The notes below the pieces were generated by a model that was given only the letters and a program-made list of their open reading frames with translations, was not told where the DNA came from and did no database searches. A DNA stretch of 64,000 bases from Trichormus sp. ATA11-4-KO1 (lineage in GTDB: Bacteria; Cyanobacteriota; Cyanobacteriia; Cyanobacteriales; Nostocaceae). Where the stretch lies: positions 1-64,000 of the forward strand of contig JAHHIM010000007.1 of NCBI GenBank assembly GCA_019358915.1, read 5' to 3'. Below, piece after piece: positions 20,348 through 28,762 of this stretch. Position 1 is the stretch's first letter, and each line of letters starts with the position of its first letter. Position numbers and translations under genes: made by a program.

Positions 20348-21661
20348 TTAAGTCGTGTACTCCGCATTAATTTTCACGTAGTCATAGCTTAGGTCGCAAC
20401 CCCAAGCTTTACCAGAACCATTAGCATTGCCAACCCTGACGGCAATGATGACTGGATTATCTACCCGTTGAGCTTTAATAGTGTTTCTATCAACAGACAA
20501 ATCATTACTATTGTTAGTAGCAATAACATCTTTGGCTAGAGAGGAATCTGCTGCTACTTGCTGCAAATAAGCACTAGCAGCCGCACGGTCGTAAGGCTGG
20601 GGTTGACCGTTCTCCAACATTAAGAAATCCCCTAGCTTAATTTGCAGGTTGTCTTGTTCAAAGGGCACACCTGCACGTCCGGCGGCGGCGGCGATCCGTC
20701 CCCAGTTGGGGTCACGTCCAAAGATGGCCGATTTAACTAAGGATGAACCGGCAATAGTTTTGGCTATTTGCCGGGCTGCAAGTTCATCATGGGCCCCAGT
20801 CACTTGCACTTCAATTAAGCAGGTTGCACCTTCGCCATCACGAGCGATCGCTTTGGCTAAATGCTGGCAAACTGCTGTTAACATGGCCTCTAATTTTTCG
20901 GCTTCTGCACCCATTTCTGTAATTGCTGGGGTGCGGGATTGACCATTTGCTAGGGCGATTAAGCTGTCGTTGGTGCTGGTATCACCATCAACGGTAATGG
21001 AATTGAAACTTCTATCGGCTGCCCTTGAGAGCATTTGTTGCCATAAGGTAGATGAAACTGCCGCATCACAGGTGACAAATGCCAGCATAGTGGCCATGTT
21101 GGGATGAATCATTCCGGAACCTTTGGCAATACCGCCAATTCGCACGGGGCGATCGCCTATAGTTGTCTCTAAGGCAATGGATTTTGTGACCAAGTCTGTG
21201 GTGATAATTGCCCCGGCTGCGGCATCTGAGCCTGTGGGAGAGAGTGTTGCTACTAGCTTGGGAATGCCACTGCGTAAGGCATCTATTTTGATGCGTTGAC
21301 CTATTACGCCAGTAGAAGCCAAGAGTATCGATTCCGGGGAAATATTCAACTCCGTAGCTAATAGTTGGGCGCTTTCTTCAGCATCACGCACACCTTGTTT
21401 GCCTGTGGCGGCGTTTGCTTGACCAGCATTACAGAGAATTGCCCGAGCGCTATGTTTGGCTTGCAAGCGTTGGCGACAATAATCTACACAGGCGGCTTTG
21501 ACTTGGCTAGTGGTGAATACACCAGCTGCGATCGCTTCCACATCTGACCATATCAATGCTAAATCGGGCAATCCCGAAGGTTTCAAGCCGGCGGTGATTC
21601 CTGCCGCTTGATACCCTCTAGGAGCTGTAACACCACCTGTAATTTCCTGCCAGTCTGCCAT
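20348..21661 (-). CDS. argJ: Bifunctional ornithine acetyltransferase/N-acetylglutamate synthase
   Basis: KGSGMIHPNMATML, DGDTSTND, DGEGAT, YVKINAEYTT. Confidence 0.98.
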   Translation of the reverse strand: MADWQEITGGVTAPRGYQAAGITAGLKPSGLPDLALIWSDVEAIAAGVFTTSQVKAACVDYCRQRLQAKHSARAILCNAGQANAATGKQGVRDAEESAQLLATELNISPESILLASTGVIGQRIKIDALRSGIPKLVATLSPTGSDAAAGAIITTDLVTKSIALETTIGDRPVRIGGIAKGSGMIHPNMATMLAFVTCDAAVSSTLWQQMLSRAADRSFNSITVDGDTSTNDSLIALANGQSRTPAITEMGAEAEKLEAMLTAVCQHLAKAIARDGEGATCLIEVQVTGAHDELAARQIAKTIAGSSLVKSAIFGRDPNWGRIAAAAGRAGVPFEQDNLQIKLGDFLMLENGQPQPYDRAAASAYLQQVAADSSLAKDVIATNNSNDLSVDRNTIKAQRVDNPVIIAVRVGNANGSGKAWGCDLSYDYVKINAEYTT

Positions 21662-21810
21662 TTTTCTTTTTCCACAACTATTAGCTGCTCGACTGGCGAT
21701 TATACCAAGTCTTAACTCACCTGAAAAAGTGCTGAGTGCTGAGTGCTGAGTAGGGAACTATGAAAAGTTTTTTCTTTCTACTCAGCTTGACTGAAAGCTC
21801 AATGCTAATC

Positions 21811-21866
21811 AAGAAATAAGGAGAGCTACTTGGGCAGCTCTCCAGATCATCAGGGTGCATCTACTT
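21811..21866 (-). ncRNA. Putative sRNA copy 1 (NsiR1-like 5' motif GTAGATGCACC)
   Basis: TATACT -10 at 21872-21877; body AGTAGATGCACCCTGATGATCTGGAGAGCTGCCCAAGTAGCTCTCCTTATTT with terminal hairpin; paralog 410 bp away. Confidence 0.65.
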
Positions 21867-21890
21867 AGCACAGTATAGCATTTTTGCCAT

Positions 21891-21907
21891 GAGGAGTAAT
21901 ACCCATT
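21891..21907. promoter_or_regulatory. HetR-box-like imperfect palindrome at about -35 of sRNA copy 1
   Basis: GAGGAGTAATACCCATT compared with the hetP-type GAGGGGT-N3-ACCCCTC (from memory). Confidence 0.4.
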
Positions 21908-22220
21908 ATTTATTTTCTTGTATAAACATTGTTAAGAAATTACTTGGTAATTACTTAACTCAAAAGATTATAATTGAAAACTGTAATTTTGATTACCATG
22001 AATAAATATTTAATTTCAGTAGTGCTGAGTGCTGAGTACAACCCTATAGTTAAAACTAGGGGATTGAAACAAGGACACATTTTTTCTGGCACTGCGTGTC
22101 TCGAAAAAAATGTTTTTACCTAGCTTCATAAATAAATTTAGGGGCTTCAAACCCTATATGCTCAGTGCAGTTAATTTTACTTTTTACTCAGCACTCAGCA
22201 CTATTTTGGTGATAAGTACG

Positions 22221-22276
22221 AATAAATAAGGAGAGCTACTTGGGCAGCTCTCCAGGTCATTAGGATGCATCTACTA
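22221..22276 (-). ncRNA. Putative sRNA copy 2
   Basis: TATTCT -10 at 22282-22287; body AGTAGATGCATCCTAATGACCTGGAGAGCTGCCCAAGTAGCTCTCCTTATTT. Confidence 0.65.
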
Positions 22277-22300
22277 AACACAGAATAGCTTTTTAGGTGT

Positions 22301-22317
22301 GAGGGGTGTCACCTATT
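22301..22317. promoter_or_regulatory. HetR-box-like imperfect palindrome at about -35 of sRNA copy 2
   Basis: GAGGGGTGTCACCTATT; same offset from -10 as in copy 1. Confidence 0.45.
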
Positions 22318-22363
22318 TTTCTCTGTTGTTTGTAAATATCTAATGAAGAAATTACCGTTAAAG

Positions 22364-23851
22364 CTACAGACAAAGCTCAGAATTTAGTTTCTGTTCCACC
22401 AATTCATTAGTCAACTTCGGATCAGCACGTTTACTAGTCTTTTTTAAAACCTGCCCGACAAAGAAGCCTTTAAGGTTGGTGTTGCCGTGGCGATACTTTT
22501 CTAGTTCTTTGGGGTTGGCGGCTATCACTTCATCAACAATTGGTCTCAGTACAGTAGGATCGCTGATTAACTCCTGACCTGCAAAAGCTTTTTCCGGAGA
22601 AATACCTGACAGTAAATCTGGCAGCTTTTGTTTAGCTTGGGCGTTACTGATTTTACCAGATTCAATGCGAGTGATCACCTCGGCTAGATTGGTGGGAGTT
22701 AGAGCAATTTCCGTAATACTGAGCTTTTGCTTGTTGAGGTATGCGGCGATATCTTGAGTAATCCAGTTAGCAGCAGCTTTGGGATTTGCTCCAGCCGCGA
22801 TCGCCTCTTCAAAATAAGTAGCTACGGTGCGGTCTTCTGTCAAAACTCGTGCATCGTAAACCGAAAGCCCCAACTCATTTTCGTAATGATGGCGTTTTTG
22901 GGCTGGGAGTTCTGGTAATTCGCTGCGCCATTGCTCTAATTGTGCATCTGACACCTCAATGGGTGCTAAATCTGGTTCGGGGAAGTAGCGGTAATCGCTA
23001 GAACCTTCCTTAGTCCGCATACTAATTGTACGTTGAGAACCTTCTTCCCACAGGCGAGTTTCTTGGATAATGCGATCGCCTGCTTCGATGGCGGCGATTT
23101 GCCTTTCAATTTCGTAATCAATCGCCCGTTGAATGGCGTTGAAGGAGTTCATGTTTTTAATTTCTACCTTGGTGCCAAACTCCTTTCGTCCCACTGGACG
23201 CACGGAAATATTCACATCACAACGTAGAGATCCTTCTTGCATATTGCCATCACTCACACCGAGATAACGCATAATCCGGCGCAATTCTTCGGCATATGCA
23301 GCAGCTTCTTCACCAGAACGCAAGTCAGGTTCCGAAACGATTTCTACCAACGGCACACCTGCGCGGTTGTAGTCTACTAAAGAATAGGCTGAACCCGATA
23401 GGCGGTCACTACCTGCGTGTACGAGTTTGCCTGCATCTTCCTCCATGTGTAGACGGGTGATCCCAATGCGTTTGCGAATGGGGTTCCCCTCAGCATCTAC
23501 CAACTCAATTTCTAACCAGCCATGTTCGGCAATGGGTAGGTCATATTGAGAAATTTGATAATTTTTCGGAAGATCCGGATAAAAATACTGTTTACGGTCA
23601 AATTTGCTACATTTAGCAATTTGGCAATTTAACGCCAAACCCGCCTTCACAGCATATTCTAAGACTTTTTGATTCAGTACGGGTAAAACTCCAGGTAACC
23701 CCATACACACAGGATCAATATTAGTATTAGGGTCAGCACCGAATGCTGTAGAGCTATTAGAAAAAATCTTCGTATTGGTACTCAGCTGACAATGAGTTTC
23801 TAGACCAATAATCGCTTCGTACTCAGTTTTTACGGTCGTAGCAGCAGTCAT
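22364..23851 (-). CDS. gatB: Asp/Glu-tRNA amidotransferase subunit B
   Basis: IGLETHCQL, FDRKQYFYPDLPK, YRYFPEPDL. Confidence 0.99.
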   Translation of the reverse strand: MTAATTVKTEYEAIIGLETHCQLSTNTKIFSNSSTAFGADPNTNIDPVCMGLPGVLPVLNQKVLEYAVKAGLALNCQIAKCSKFDRKQYFYPDLPKNYQISQYDLPIAEHGWLEIELVDAEGNPIRKRIGITRLHMEEDAGKLVHAGSDRLSGSAYSLVDYNRAGVPLVEIVSEPDLRSGEEAAAYAEELRRIMRYLGVSDGNMQEGSLRCDVNISVRPVGRKEFGTKVEIKNMNSFNAIQRAIDYEIERQIAAIEAGDRIIQETRLWEEGSQRTISMRTKEGSSDYRYFPEPDLAPIEVSDAQLEQWRSELPELPAQKRHHYENELGLSVYDARVLTEDRTVATYFEEAIAAGANPKAAANWITQDIAAYLNKQKLSITEIALTPTNLAEVITRIESGKISNAQAKQKLPDLLSGISPEKAFAGQELISDPTVLRPIVDEVIAANPKELEKYRHGNTNLKGFFVGQVLKKTSKRADPKLTNELVEQKLNSELCL

Positions 23852-23970: not shown

Positions 23971-26556
23971 TTATTTCTCTTGAAAAGTCCAAACTCCCTC
24001 ATCCCAATCAAACTCTGTGGGAGGTGATTGTAACCAATGCTGACACCGGAGAAGATGCAACATCGCGGCTTTGTCCTGGTTATCAACGCCTAAGACTTTA
24101 GCAAACTCAGCTCTAGCAAGGGTAAACTGACGACTGAGATAATACTCACGTCCTTTGTGGTAATGCTCAATAACTTGCAATTTGTCGCTACTAACAGTAT
24201 CGGAACGCAATCCCACCAATTCATAAATGGCTACTGGCTCGTTTCTGCCTTTGACGCGAATGTAATCTAGTTCTCTAGCCCAGATATGCTCTTGGCAAGG
24301 TTTAAAGGTATTATCACTGAGAATAATATCGCAACCGTACTGTTTACTGACGCTTTCTAGCCGGGAACCGAGGTTAACGCCATCACCAATAGCAGTAAAT
24401 TCCATGCGCTTACTAGAGCCGATGTTACCACTAATCACAGTATCAGAATTGATGCCAATGCCGATGTTAATTCTGGGCTTACTTGCGGCGTAGCGACGTT
24501 GGTTAAATTCATACAACCGATGACGCATTTCTACTGATGTTTGCACCGCCATCCAGGCGTGGTCTGCTAAAGGTAAAGGGGAACCAAACACAGCCATGAT
24601 GGCATCGCCGATATATTTATCTAGAGTACCTTTATGTTTAAAAACGGCTTCCACCATCGATTCAAAATATTCATTGAGCATACTCACCACTTCTTCAGCT
24701 GCCAAATTTTCCGTTAAAGTGGTGTACCCGCGAATATCAGAAAATAAAATCGAAACTTCTTTGCGATCGCCCCCTAGTTTAGCATCATCCAATTTCAGTA
24801 ATTCTTCTGCTAATTCTTGAGTCATGTAGCGGTACATCGTACTTTTGAGGCGCTTTTCATCGCTGATATCTTCCATGACAACCAGTGCGCCACGGACTTG
24901 CTGTTGATCGCTAGCATCAGCAATGGTGTTAATCGATAAATTAATACTGTGTTGTTCTGTTCCAGTACTAACAAGTGTGCGATCAGGGTAATATTGCTGA
25001 CAGTGTTTTAAATTATTGGCGTGTAGAGCATCCTGACACCACTTACTAAAGTCACCTTCTTTAATAGCGATCGCCTCAGTAATTAATTTACCTTCTAAAC
25101 GGTCTTCGGCTTCCAGTCCTAATAAGCGCTTGGCACTTTCATTAGCCGCAATAATTGACCCTGATTTGTCCGTGGAAATTACACCATTAGAAAGACTACG
25201 CAAAATGTCCCGTTGCATTTGTTCTTGTTGCTTGACTGTGGCAAACAACTGGGCGTTTTGTAATGCTACTCCCGCTTGAATATTAAAAGCTTCCATAAAT
25301 TCTTCATCGTTACAGTCAAAACTAGCTTGGAAGCATTCGGGAGCCTTGGGCCAAAAAGCCGGATTATATGGCGGTAAATCTCCTGATTTCTTTTTATTAA
25401 CAAGCTGCGTCACCCCAATCAATTCCTGATCGGCATTAAACACCGGCATACATAATAAACTACAGGTACGATAGCCATTTTGCTGGTCAATTTGTTTAGC
25501 TGTTTCCGAGTCAGGATGATCATACAAATCAAAAGGAATATTCAACTTTTGACCAGATGCAGCGACAATACCAGCAAAGCCTTTACCTATCGGTACTCGT
25601 AACTCCCTAGTTAAACCATTATCTTGGGTAATTTTTGTCCATAATTCATGGCGATCGCGATCTATCAGCCAAAGAGTACTGCGATCGGCATTCATCAGTT
25701 CTTTAGCTTCATCCATGACCCGCTTTAAAGTATCTTCTAAATCAAGACTACTTTGACTGAGGGACTTGATTGCTTTCATTAGCGCCGCTACTGCTCTTTG
25801 TTTTTGAGTCGCCATATAAAACGAGCGCGACGACTCTAAAATCAATCTAATTGAAGGAGCAAATTCTTGAAATAACTGTTCATCAGCCGTAGTAAAACCT
25901 TGAGTATCAATGCGCTCTGAGATGGAAGCATCTGCCTGATTTAGCAATTTTAATTTATTGAGTAGTTGCACCACTGCCACTAATTTTCCTTGTTCATTCA
26001 ATAGTGGCAAAGCCAGCATTGTGTAGGTGCGATAGCCAGTTCTTTTTTCTTGTTCCTGAGCAAATACCGAACGCGGGTCTTGATAAAAATCAAAAGGAAT
26101 ATTAATTACTTGTTTAAAAGTGGCTACTTCACCAGCAATCCCTTTATCTGCGGGAATGCGAATTTCTAGAGAATGTTCCCCTTCTCCTTCAGCTAAAATT
26201 GACCAAAGTTCTTGTTTTTCTTCATCTAATAAAAATATAGTTGTCCGGTCTGCTCCTAGTAATTCTCCTGTTTTTAAGGTAATCGAATGCAACATTTCTT
26301 GGAGAATTGTTTCAAACCCATGAGAATCTAACATTGATAGGGTTTGATGCACAATTTGTAATTTTTGCTCGACTTCCGTAACAACTTGTTTAAAAGTATC
26401 CTGAGTTAGAGGAGCAAGAAACGTAGAAATAGTTCCCTTTTTTCTAGCAAGAGTACCCACAGGAGTTGAATTCGCTTGCAAGTAATAATTTTCTTGGTTG
26501 CTAACACCAATAATTAAACCAGCAGTCTCTCCAAAACTACGTTGATGCACTGACAT
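23971..26556 (-). CDS. cyaB2: Adenylate cyclase GAF-GAF-PAS-CYC (CyaB2 type)
   Basis: Two GAF domains (GIAGEVA, GFAGIVA), PAS, FSDIRGYT, KYIGDAIM, GDGVNLGSRLE; N-terminus resembles Anabaena CyaB2. Confidence 0.88.
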   Translation of the reverse strand: MSVHQRSFGETAGLIIGVSNQENYYLQANSTPVGTLARKKGTISTFLAPLTQDTFKQVVTEVEQKLQIVHQTLSMLDSHGFETILQEMLHSITLKTGELLGADRTTIFLLDEEKQELWSILAEGEGEHSLEIRIPADKGIAGEVATFKQVINIPFDFYQDPRSVFAQEQEKRTGYRTYTMLALPLLNEQGKLVAVVQLLNKLKLLNQADASISERIDTQGFTTADEQLFQEFAPSIRLILESSRSFYMATQKQRAVAALMKAIKSLSQSSLDLEDTLKRVMDEAKELMNADRSTLWLIDRDRHELWTKITQDNGLTRELRVPIGKGFAGIVAASGQKLNIPFDLYDHPDSETAKQIDQQNGYRTCSLLCMPVFNADQELIGVTQLVNKKKSGDLPPYNPAFWPKAPECFQASFDCNDEEFMEAFNIQAGVALQNAQLFATVKQQEQMQRDILRSLSNGVISTDKSGSIIAANESAKRLLGLEAEDRLEGKLITEAIAIKEGDFSKWCQDALHANNLKHCQQYYPDRTLVSTGTEQHSINLSINTIADASDQQQVRGALVVMEDISDEKRLKSTMYRYMTQELAEELLKLDDAKLGGDRKEVSILFSDIRGYTTLTENLAAEEVVSMLNEYFESMVEAVFKHKGTLDKYIGDAIMAVFGSPLPLADHAWMAVQTSVEMRHRLYEFNQRRYAASKPRINIGIGINSDTVISGNIGSSKRMEFTAIGDGVNLGSRLESVSKQYGCDIILSDNTFKPCQEHIWARELDYIRVKGRNEPVAIYELVGLRSDTVSSDKLQVIEHYHKGREYYLSRQFTLARAEFAKVLGVDNQDKAAMLHLLRCQHWLQSPPTEFDWDEGVWTFQEK

Positions 26557-27664: not shown

Positions 27665-28762
27665 TTAGCCGTGAATAGCTGGAGCAGTTAAAGCTACGGG
27701 TGCGGCTTCACCCGCAGCCAAATCTAGAGGGAAGTTGTGAGCGTTGCGTTCATGCATCACTTCCATCCCTAAATTGGCCCGGTTAATTACATCAGCCCAA
27801 GTGCTAATTACACCACCTTGTGAGTCAAGCACTGACTGATTGAAATTGAATCCGTTCAAATTAAACGCCATTGTGCTAATACCCAAAGCAGTGAACCAGA
27901 TACCAACAACAGGCCAAGCTGCAAGTAGGAAGTGAAGAGTACGACTATTAGCCGCAGTTCCTAATACTACCTCGTTGAGTCGTCCAACTAAACGACCGAA
28001 ATAACCGTGGGCAGCTATGATGTTATAGGTTTCTTCTTCCTGACCAAACTTGTAACCATAGTTTTGAGACTCAATTTCGGTAGTCTCACGCACCAGGGAA
28101 GATGTCACGAGTGAACCATGCATGGCGCTAAACAACGCACCACCAAATACTCCCGCTACGCCCAGCATGTGGAATGGGTGCATCAAAATATTGTGTTCGG
28201 CTTGAAACACCAACATAAAGTTGAAGGTTCCAGAAATACCCAAAGGCATACCATCAGAAAAAGAACCTTGACCGATGGGATATACCAAAAACACGGCGGT
28301 AGCGCTAGCTAAAGGCGCGCTGTAAGCTACGCAAATCCAAGGACGCATACCTAAGCGATAGGATAACTCCCATTGACGACCCAAATAACAGGCGCAGCCA
28401 ATCAAGAAATGAAAAATGATTAGTTGGTAAGGGCCACCGTTATACAACCACTCATCTAAAGAAGCAGCCTCCCAGATGGGGTAGAAGTGTAAGCCAATGG
28501 CGTTAGAAGAAGGCACGACTGCACCAGAAATGATGTTATTGCCATAAATTAAAGAACCAGCAACAGGTTCGCGGATACCATCAATATCCACAGGAGGTGC
28601 AGCAATAAAGGCGATGATAAAGCAGGTGGTGGCAGTTAGGAGAGTGGGAATCATCAGGACACCGAACCAACCGATGTAAAGACGGTTATCAGTGCTAGTG
28701 ATCCATGCACAGAAACGCTCCCAGACATTGGCGCTAGAGCGTCCTTGTAAGATGGTAGTCAT
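27665..28762 (-). CDS. psbA: Photosystem II D1 protein, atypical QB-loop variant (365 aa)
   Basis: Full D1 with Y161, D170, E189, H190, H198, H215, H252, [13 protein letters not shown] and C-terminal extension; IFQYASFNN replaced by [14 protein letters not shown]. Confidence 0.97.

Follow-up and report, generated by a model that had tools for sequence, protein, structure and literature searches.

The window analysed here, a stretch of 64,000 nt of Trichormus sp. ATA11-4-KO1 (contig JAHHIM010000007.1), carries two similar units on the minus strand between gatB (22364..23851, -), their upstream neighbour, and argJ (20348..21661, -), their downstream neighbour. Both neighbouring genes scored above the cut-off of their NCBIfam models (an equivalog in the case of gatB), and the synteny is conserved. 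Unit A, proximal to argJ, is a predicted sRNA gene of 52 nt with the canonical seed (21814..21865, -) and scores 77.6 bits with the covariance model of the family; its putative start was set from the spacing to the -10 element, and the argJ start codon lies 204 nt past it. Unit B, the second, gatB-proximal copy (22224..22275, -; 67.6 bits), has three substitutions in the 5' region. As described in the first-pass annotation of this DNA, the units are 410 bp apart on the same strand. They belong to a 119-nt repeat (21811-21929 and 22221-22339, 77% identical) and contain the same hairpin sequence of 24 nt, which in the 5.97-Mb genome is unique to them even with four mismatches allowed.

The first 22 nt of each unit are unpaired in the centroid fold; in unit A this 5' region (21844..21865, -) is the seed common to NsiR1 and is near-invariant across 312 units of the family. 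It is followed by a terminator composed of the hairpin (21843-21820) and a U-rich tail (together 21812..21843, -), in unit B of the corresponding hairpin (22253-22230) and tail (22222..22253, -), the latter being the first terminator downstream of the gatB stop at 22364. Both hairpins were called by an intrinsic-terminator scan (three found, as compared with 0.8 ± 0.9 in shuffled sequences), and the fold z-scores of the two units were -2.6 and -3.5.

Upstream of unit A lies an extended -10 element, TGnTATACT (21872..21880, -), whose TG occurs in 61 of 63 units of the host's family; unit B has TATTCT without the TG extension (22282..22290, -), and both boxes are present as originally described. 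The sequence between the units had been regarded as unrelated, which holds for the rest of the spacer but not for its unit-proximal part, where the likeness reaches approximately 65 nt upstream of the RNA start. Within this upstream similarity lies a feature missed at that stage, a HetR-type palindrome centred at -34 before unit A (21893..21905, -) and likewise before unit B (22303..22315, -). Neither palindrome contains the exact GGG-N5-CCC (PMC4192349, available in part); each deviates by one mismatch, and the core matches at only 8/10 positions. A sigma-70 scan called no promoter at either unit because the -35 consensus is absent. The statement that the units contain no ORF was too strict as worded, as an ATG at +6 opens frames of 28 and 47 codons that run through the terminator, but it stands in substance because these frames are not conserved. 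A small-peptide mRNA was considered for the family and rejected: no stop precedes the terminator in 231 of 250 ATG-bearing bodies, and indels of 1-2 nt shift the frame.

Short tandem repeats of 7 nt were observed in or near the spacer (window 21728-21751, 22021-22037 and 22186-22202), and two of the tracts make a 22-nt inverted repeat flanking 140 nt between the units. The unit spacing is 410 here versus 216 in a genome of the same genus, and the inter-unit stretch may therefore be a small insertion. Directly upstream of gatB is a gene for a GAF-GAF-PAS adenylate cyclase (window 23971-26556, -). Further upstream, a psbA-like ORF of 365 aa (window 27665-28762, -) has a sequence around the usual D1 C-terminal ligands that looks atypical by eye; it may be a rogue D1 form.

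Relation to NsiR1 and distribution of the family

The 5' motif had been recognized as that of the heterocyst sRNA NsiR1, and the first 16 nt of unit A are indeed identical to those of the genome's own NsiR1 copies, with two substitutions in the same stretch of unit B. Compared with the Rfam model of NsiR1 (RF02399; gathering cut-off 39 bits), the units score 26.8 and 18.6 bits, whereas six NsiR1 copies of the same genome score 45-67 bits; these are located at the end of contig C7, at the start of contig C8 before hetF and, in one case, on contig C6. A cmscan of positions 21000-23000 at E-values up to 10 yielded no Rfam family above cut-off, only the sub-threshold NsiR1 hits. Conversely, the new covariance model, built from 69 members, detects only units A and B in the genome and gives NsiR1 at most 26.5 bits. 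As remarked earlier, the hairpin is unlike that of NsiR1. The DIF1 motif TCCGGA is missing at -35 in both units, as had been noted, and an exact DIF1 is found in one of the 312 units, itself an NsiR1-type copy; every genomic NsiR1 copy examined by sequence has the motif. Nor is the locus hetF, in accordance with the first-pass annotation: hetF and the NsiR1 array lie elsewhere, on C8 and at the end of C7. Judged by sequence, the units are a separate RNA family and not NsiR1, and comparative evidence supports the proposal that they are sibling sRNAs, as predicted from the common seed, under different control.

One of the NsiR1 copies is solitary (C6:86686-86736, -; 52 bits); it has a DIF1 promoter, is far from hetF and lies between lgt and cobM, where it runs antisense to the sequence preceding cobM. 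Outside the host's family, hetR-positive genomes commonly have NsiR1-like copies of the DIF1 type, several of them beside hetF. A third seed-bearing type, with a HetR-type box at about -26 and another hairpin, was seen in genomes outside the family and is arranged in tandem in one of them (G054).

By DNA search, the element is present in 36/36 genomes of the host's taxonomic family; among the other families that make up the order, 14 of 24 have it. The exact 24-nt pattern has at least 117 matching stretches, with Nostoc, Anabaena, Fischerella, Calothrix, Scytonema, Richelia and others as carriers among the matches listed. Regarding the 80 named loci with long flanks, gatB or argJ is present at 79; each locus has 1-8 complete tandem units. 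Across 312 units, deduplicated by sequence, information peaks at the seed (conserved in part because the search patterns required it), the hairpin stem, the element TGnTATAnT (-15 to -7) and the palindrome (-40 to -28). In an alignment of 69 sequences, 92.8% of the hairpin cells are paired and four of eight pairs show compensatory change. An origin of the unit family before NsiR1 was considered and is unsupported, as a taxonomic family seemingly with this type alone also has DIF1-type copies.

That the units are merely gatB terminators or duplicated repeats without an RNA product, the refuting case named by the first-pass annotation, would suit the position of unit B directly after gatB. It is hardly credible, however, given that the promoter elements and the unpaired 5' strand are better conserved across orders than the hairpin loop, that arrays hold up to eight complete units and that some copies lie away from gatB.

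Contigs of eight RNA runs (24 were found) have the region inside long contigs or lack it, and are silent on start, strand and level. In the transcription-unit table of PCC 7120, neither the thrC-argJ interval nor the stretch directly after gatB contains a unit. The second refuting case, that the units were already catalogued sRNA copies, finds no match in the 327-entry sRNA catalogue of PCC 7120, in which, as far as its available part goes, the seed occurs in NsiR1 alone (PMC4734099); its NsiR1 row gives 38 genomes with matches, 27 of them heterocystous. According to the same partial source, the underlying pipeline retained a start only where the next gene was 200 nt or more away. Of the 42 loci in which the distance could be measured, 17 have the start of the last unit less than 200 nt from argJ (two Anabaena records give 160 and 196 nt), and this filter is plausibly why the family is absent from the catalogue. 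No description of the unit family was found in the literature searched, a body of text that excludes the original NsiR1 papers; within it, the family appears to be without prior description, resembling NsiR1 by its seed and differing by a probable HetR operator.

The palindrome at -34 and the presence of hetR

The HetR site of hetP is a 17-bp inverted repeat for which GGG-N5-CCC is needed (PMC4192349, in part), and the consensus palindrome of the RNA family reproduces the published site, as given in the available text, nearly letter for letter. Of the 312 units, 148 have the exact GGG-N5-CCC, in 129 cases at the same offset, and 277 have it with at most one mismatch. Palindromes matching at 8/10 or more were found in 30/30 distant loci, centred from -33 to -35 and with a 10/10 core in 29 of them, in 10/10 other hetR-positive loci and in 27/27 loci of the host's family, after three host-family loci had been dropped by a stricter pattern, two of which (L015, L029) have degenerate boxes. 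The corresponding figures are 1/16 for hetR-negative loci and 0.17% for shuffled sequences.

The distribution of the RNA follows that of hetR. Across 111 genomes sampled evenly from the class, a 14-nt seed pattern occurs in 65/65 hetR-positive and 7/46 other genomes (reversed-pattern control, 0). Regarding the seven seed-positive genomes without hetR, four are chance matches without terminator; a unit-family copy whose box has decayed is present in one, a DIF1-type copy in another and both types in the last (G091). The family model detects members in 43/45 hetR-positive genomes (in 42 of them with at least 37 bits) versus 1/25 hetR-negative genomes, the latter chosen by hand with known carriers excluded. 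The palindrome, too, co-varies with hetR. In one taxonomic family (f17), hetR above cut-off was found in 0/21 genomes, while 15 genomes retain a single unit copy beside gatB or argJ. Together with one further genome (G045), these make 16 hetR-negative loci, of which 16/16 have an intact -10 element and 15/16 a decayed box; as 15 of the loci belong to one family, the decay represents two lineages and not 16 events.

On this comparative evidence, the palindrome at -34 is probably a HetR operator. That it is instead the site of another regulator co-inherited with HetR, for example of the HetZ type, with HetR control indirect or absent, is highly unlikely in our estimation. Two genomes (G044, G091) have perfect boxes and retain patU or hetZ, with hetR not found, and hetR, hetZ and patU share their distribution (PMC12669612); both exceptions, however, are draft assemblies. 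The available part of the HetR ChIP peak list contains no peak at gatB or argJ of PCC 7120, in a study that also missed hetZ and for a genome whose unit copy was not viewed here (PMC4192349). Against this reading, HetZ works via DIF1 motifs, according to the part of PMC7377430 available, and the near-literal agreement with the hetP site points to HetR itself.

Whether HetR would activate or repress is less clear; we lean slightly towards activation. In the distant loci, the first base of the -10 element is non-consensus in 23/30 and a -35 consensus is lacking; this weak -10, the missing -35 consensus and the fixed spacing together favour activation. The HetR site of hetZ, an activating site, lies 56-17 nt before the start (PMC3610870, in part), its core being about one helical turn upstream of the unit palindrome. 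With its centre at -34, the palindrome overlies the -35 region, a placement equally typical of repressors. In the host's family, moreover, the first base of the -10 is T in 63/63 units and the TG extension is nearly universal, as given above; overlap with -35, this strong -10 and survival of the RNA after loss of hetR favour repression.

The same RNA and operator can thus be read with HetR as a repressor, the RNA being a vegetative counterpart of NsiR1 that would keep PatU low in dividing cells and be switched off as HetR activity rises, a reading that we consider rather unlikely. In its favour, the box overlaps the -35 region in a promoter of the extended -10 type, with a consensus -10 in the host's family, and without hetR it decays while -10 and RNA remain (16/16), as with a lost repressor. 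PatU3 limits cell division (PMC12288457, in part), and HetR represses alr2242 in vegetative cells (PMC4192349, in part). An activator, on the other hand, better suits the distant loci, where the spacing is constant within 2 nt in 30/30 and the -10 is weak; the strong -10 of hetR-negative genomes may be inherited; and overexpression of NsiR1.4, which has the same seed, promotes differentiation, as stated in the available part of PMC9045159, which would be awkward for a vegetative RNA.

Candidate targets and a proposed circuit

A duplex scan of 4966 start regions placed an ORF overlapping the hetZ stop at rank 4, where it is outranked by two small ORFs and by the cis-antisense site that belongs to the solitary NsiR1-type copy. 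A 12-nt perfect complement to the seed ends 1 nt before the ATG of this ORF. The overlapped gene was identified as hetZ (NF037963, above cut-off), and the ORF was taken as patU by its position (PMC7377430, in part); no family model matched it. It is present in 36/36 genomes of the host's family and in 12/44 others. The 9-nt core of the site is exact in 21 of 31 host-family loci and in 0/12 loci outside the family, six of which have partial matches. In 29 loci, whose kin are not independent, the four-fold sites within the match are identical in 23/23, 24/27, 27/27 and 24/27 cases (89-100%), compared with a mean of 63% identity at 24 upstream four-fold sites, of which four reach 85%. The match is also the 18-nt spacer between an invariant TCCGGA and GAATAG, the layout of a DIF1 promoter, and the site is confounded because it is at once coding sequence and DIF1-like promoter spacer. 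The DIF1-like promoter lies in the last hetZ codons (C2 near 94160, -), with TCCGGA invariant at synonymous sites in 29/29 loci, and from its sequence it could yield a separate patU transcript; in PCC 7120, hetZ-patU5-patU3 is a single transcription unit (PMC10287535, in part). PatU3 opposes HetZ, according to the available parts of PMC7377430 and PMC12288457, in addition to its effect on cell division mentioned above.

The pairing predicted between unit A and the hetF 5' UTR has an energy of -25.9 kcal/mol, versus -29.2 for an NsiR1 copy, and unit B would pair about 5 kcal/mol more weakly with both the patU and the hetF sites. NsiR1.4 partly represses hetF (PMC9045159, in part). Two hetP-like genes that were found pair weakly with the seed (-8.5 to -16 kcal/mol). 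From these predictions, the hetZ-patU junction is the top target candidate and the hetF 5' UTR the second.

Several other ORFs were considered as targets. An 81-aa ORF (C1:70918, -) outranks patU, with an 18-bp predicted duplex directly before the ATG; its site is fully kept in one and partly in two of three homologues, and the ORF was not found in 2/5 genomes. A second small ORF of approximately 95 aa lies in the same stretch (near C1 70918, -), and neither has a Pfam or NCBIfam match. The third-ranked candidate is an ORF on C17. A 140-aa ORF on C21 and a 139-aa ORF on C27 were rejected, the site being present in 0/4 and 0/5 homologue loci, respectively.

The hetR-less family f17 has the RNA with an intact seed in 15 genomes; patU was not found there, and hetZ is missing in both genomes tested. 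Among 82 ten-mer sites in five of its hetR-negative genomes, some small contigs excluded, no conserved start-proximal target was found. A seed that stays invariant without patU and without another conserved target found would agree with the 5' strand being a protein-binding motif. In that case the copies would titrate a protein that binds RNA, PatR (Alr1700) for example, and the match to patU would be incidental; multi-copy arrays in which each copy has its own promoter would also fit, and NsiR1 binds PatR by CLIP-seq (PMC11797042). We nevertheless regard titration as distinctly unlikely, since the same seed represses hetF and alr3234 by pairing, as reported in the available part of PMC9045159, and the patU match shows constraint at its synonymous positions.

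The preferred model, in which we have about even confidence, is that the locus holds two copies of a predicted base-pairing sRNA with the NsiR1 seed, a HetR switch at -34 and hetZ-patU as first target. Each unit would be transcribed as a separate RNA, and HetR would bind the palindrome directly. HetR would then activate the hetZ-patU operon together with an RNA masking the start of patU, so that HetZ gains on PatU, its antagonist, ahead of the NsiR1 wave that depends on HetZ and DIF1. The tandem copies would set the dose, and the hetF 5' UTR would be a second target, as for NsiR1.4. A broader version, which we consider rather doubtful, is that one ancient seed serves two promoter classes in HetR-bearing cyanobacteria, whether or not they form heterocysts, one with a direct HetR operator and one with HetZ-dependent DIF1, that its conserved target is the hetZ-patU junction and that a HetR -> sRNA -| PatU arm results.

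Significance and comparison with known systems

What HetR does in filamentous cyanobacteria that form no heterocysts is an open question (PMC12669612), and the direct HetR regulon is small and ill-defined. A HetR-type site at one position before one sRNA in many orders offers a target for reporter and deletion studies of that role. Seed-bearing RNAs of both promoter types occur in each of the hetR-positive genomes sampled, whereas NsiR1 has been described as restricted to heterocyst-formers (PMC6596454). Where another RNA family carries this seed, NsiR1 depletion and probe experiments could give masked or confounded results, and the patU start is a new candidate target for both families. The HetR -> sRNA -| PatU feed-forward arm, if true, is a component that no current model of heterocyst patterning includes.

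Regarding HetR operators, the palindrome of the units is the same as that of hetP and hetZ (PMC4192349, in part); it differs in being centred at -34 of an sRNA promoter, about 11 nt nearer to the start than the hetZ site.

The closest known RNA is NsiR1 (RF02399) of PCC 7120. It resembles the units in its length of approximately 55 nt, its unpaired 5' strand followed by a terminator, the 16-nt identity of its seed with that of unit A, its tandem copies with their own promoters, its link to HetR and the same predicted pairing with the hetF 5' UTR. In contrast, the units fall below the Rfam cut-off, have another hairpin, lie at the gatB-argJ locus and lack DIF1, having instead a sigma-70-type extended -10 element and a HetR-type palindrome at -34. 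They are antisense to no gene, whereas the first NsiR1 copy is antisense to the hetF 5' UTR, and their family persists, with a decayed box, in a taxonomic family without hetR.

Sibling sRNAs that have a common seed and different regulators are known from other systems, and Spot 42 acting on galK is an operon-discoordinating sRNA. The likeness to these lies in one seed with several inputs and in pairing predicted where a downstream cistron begins; there is no sequence relation, and the comparison is one of analogy only.
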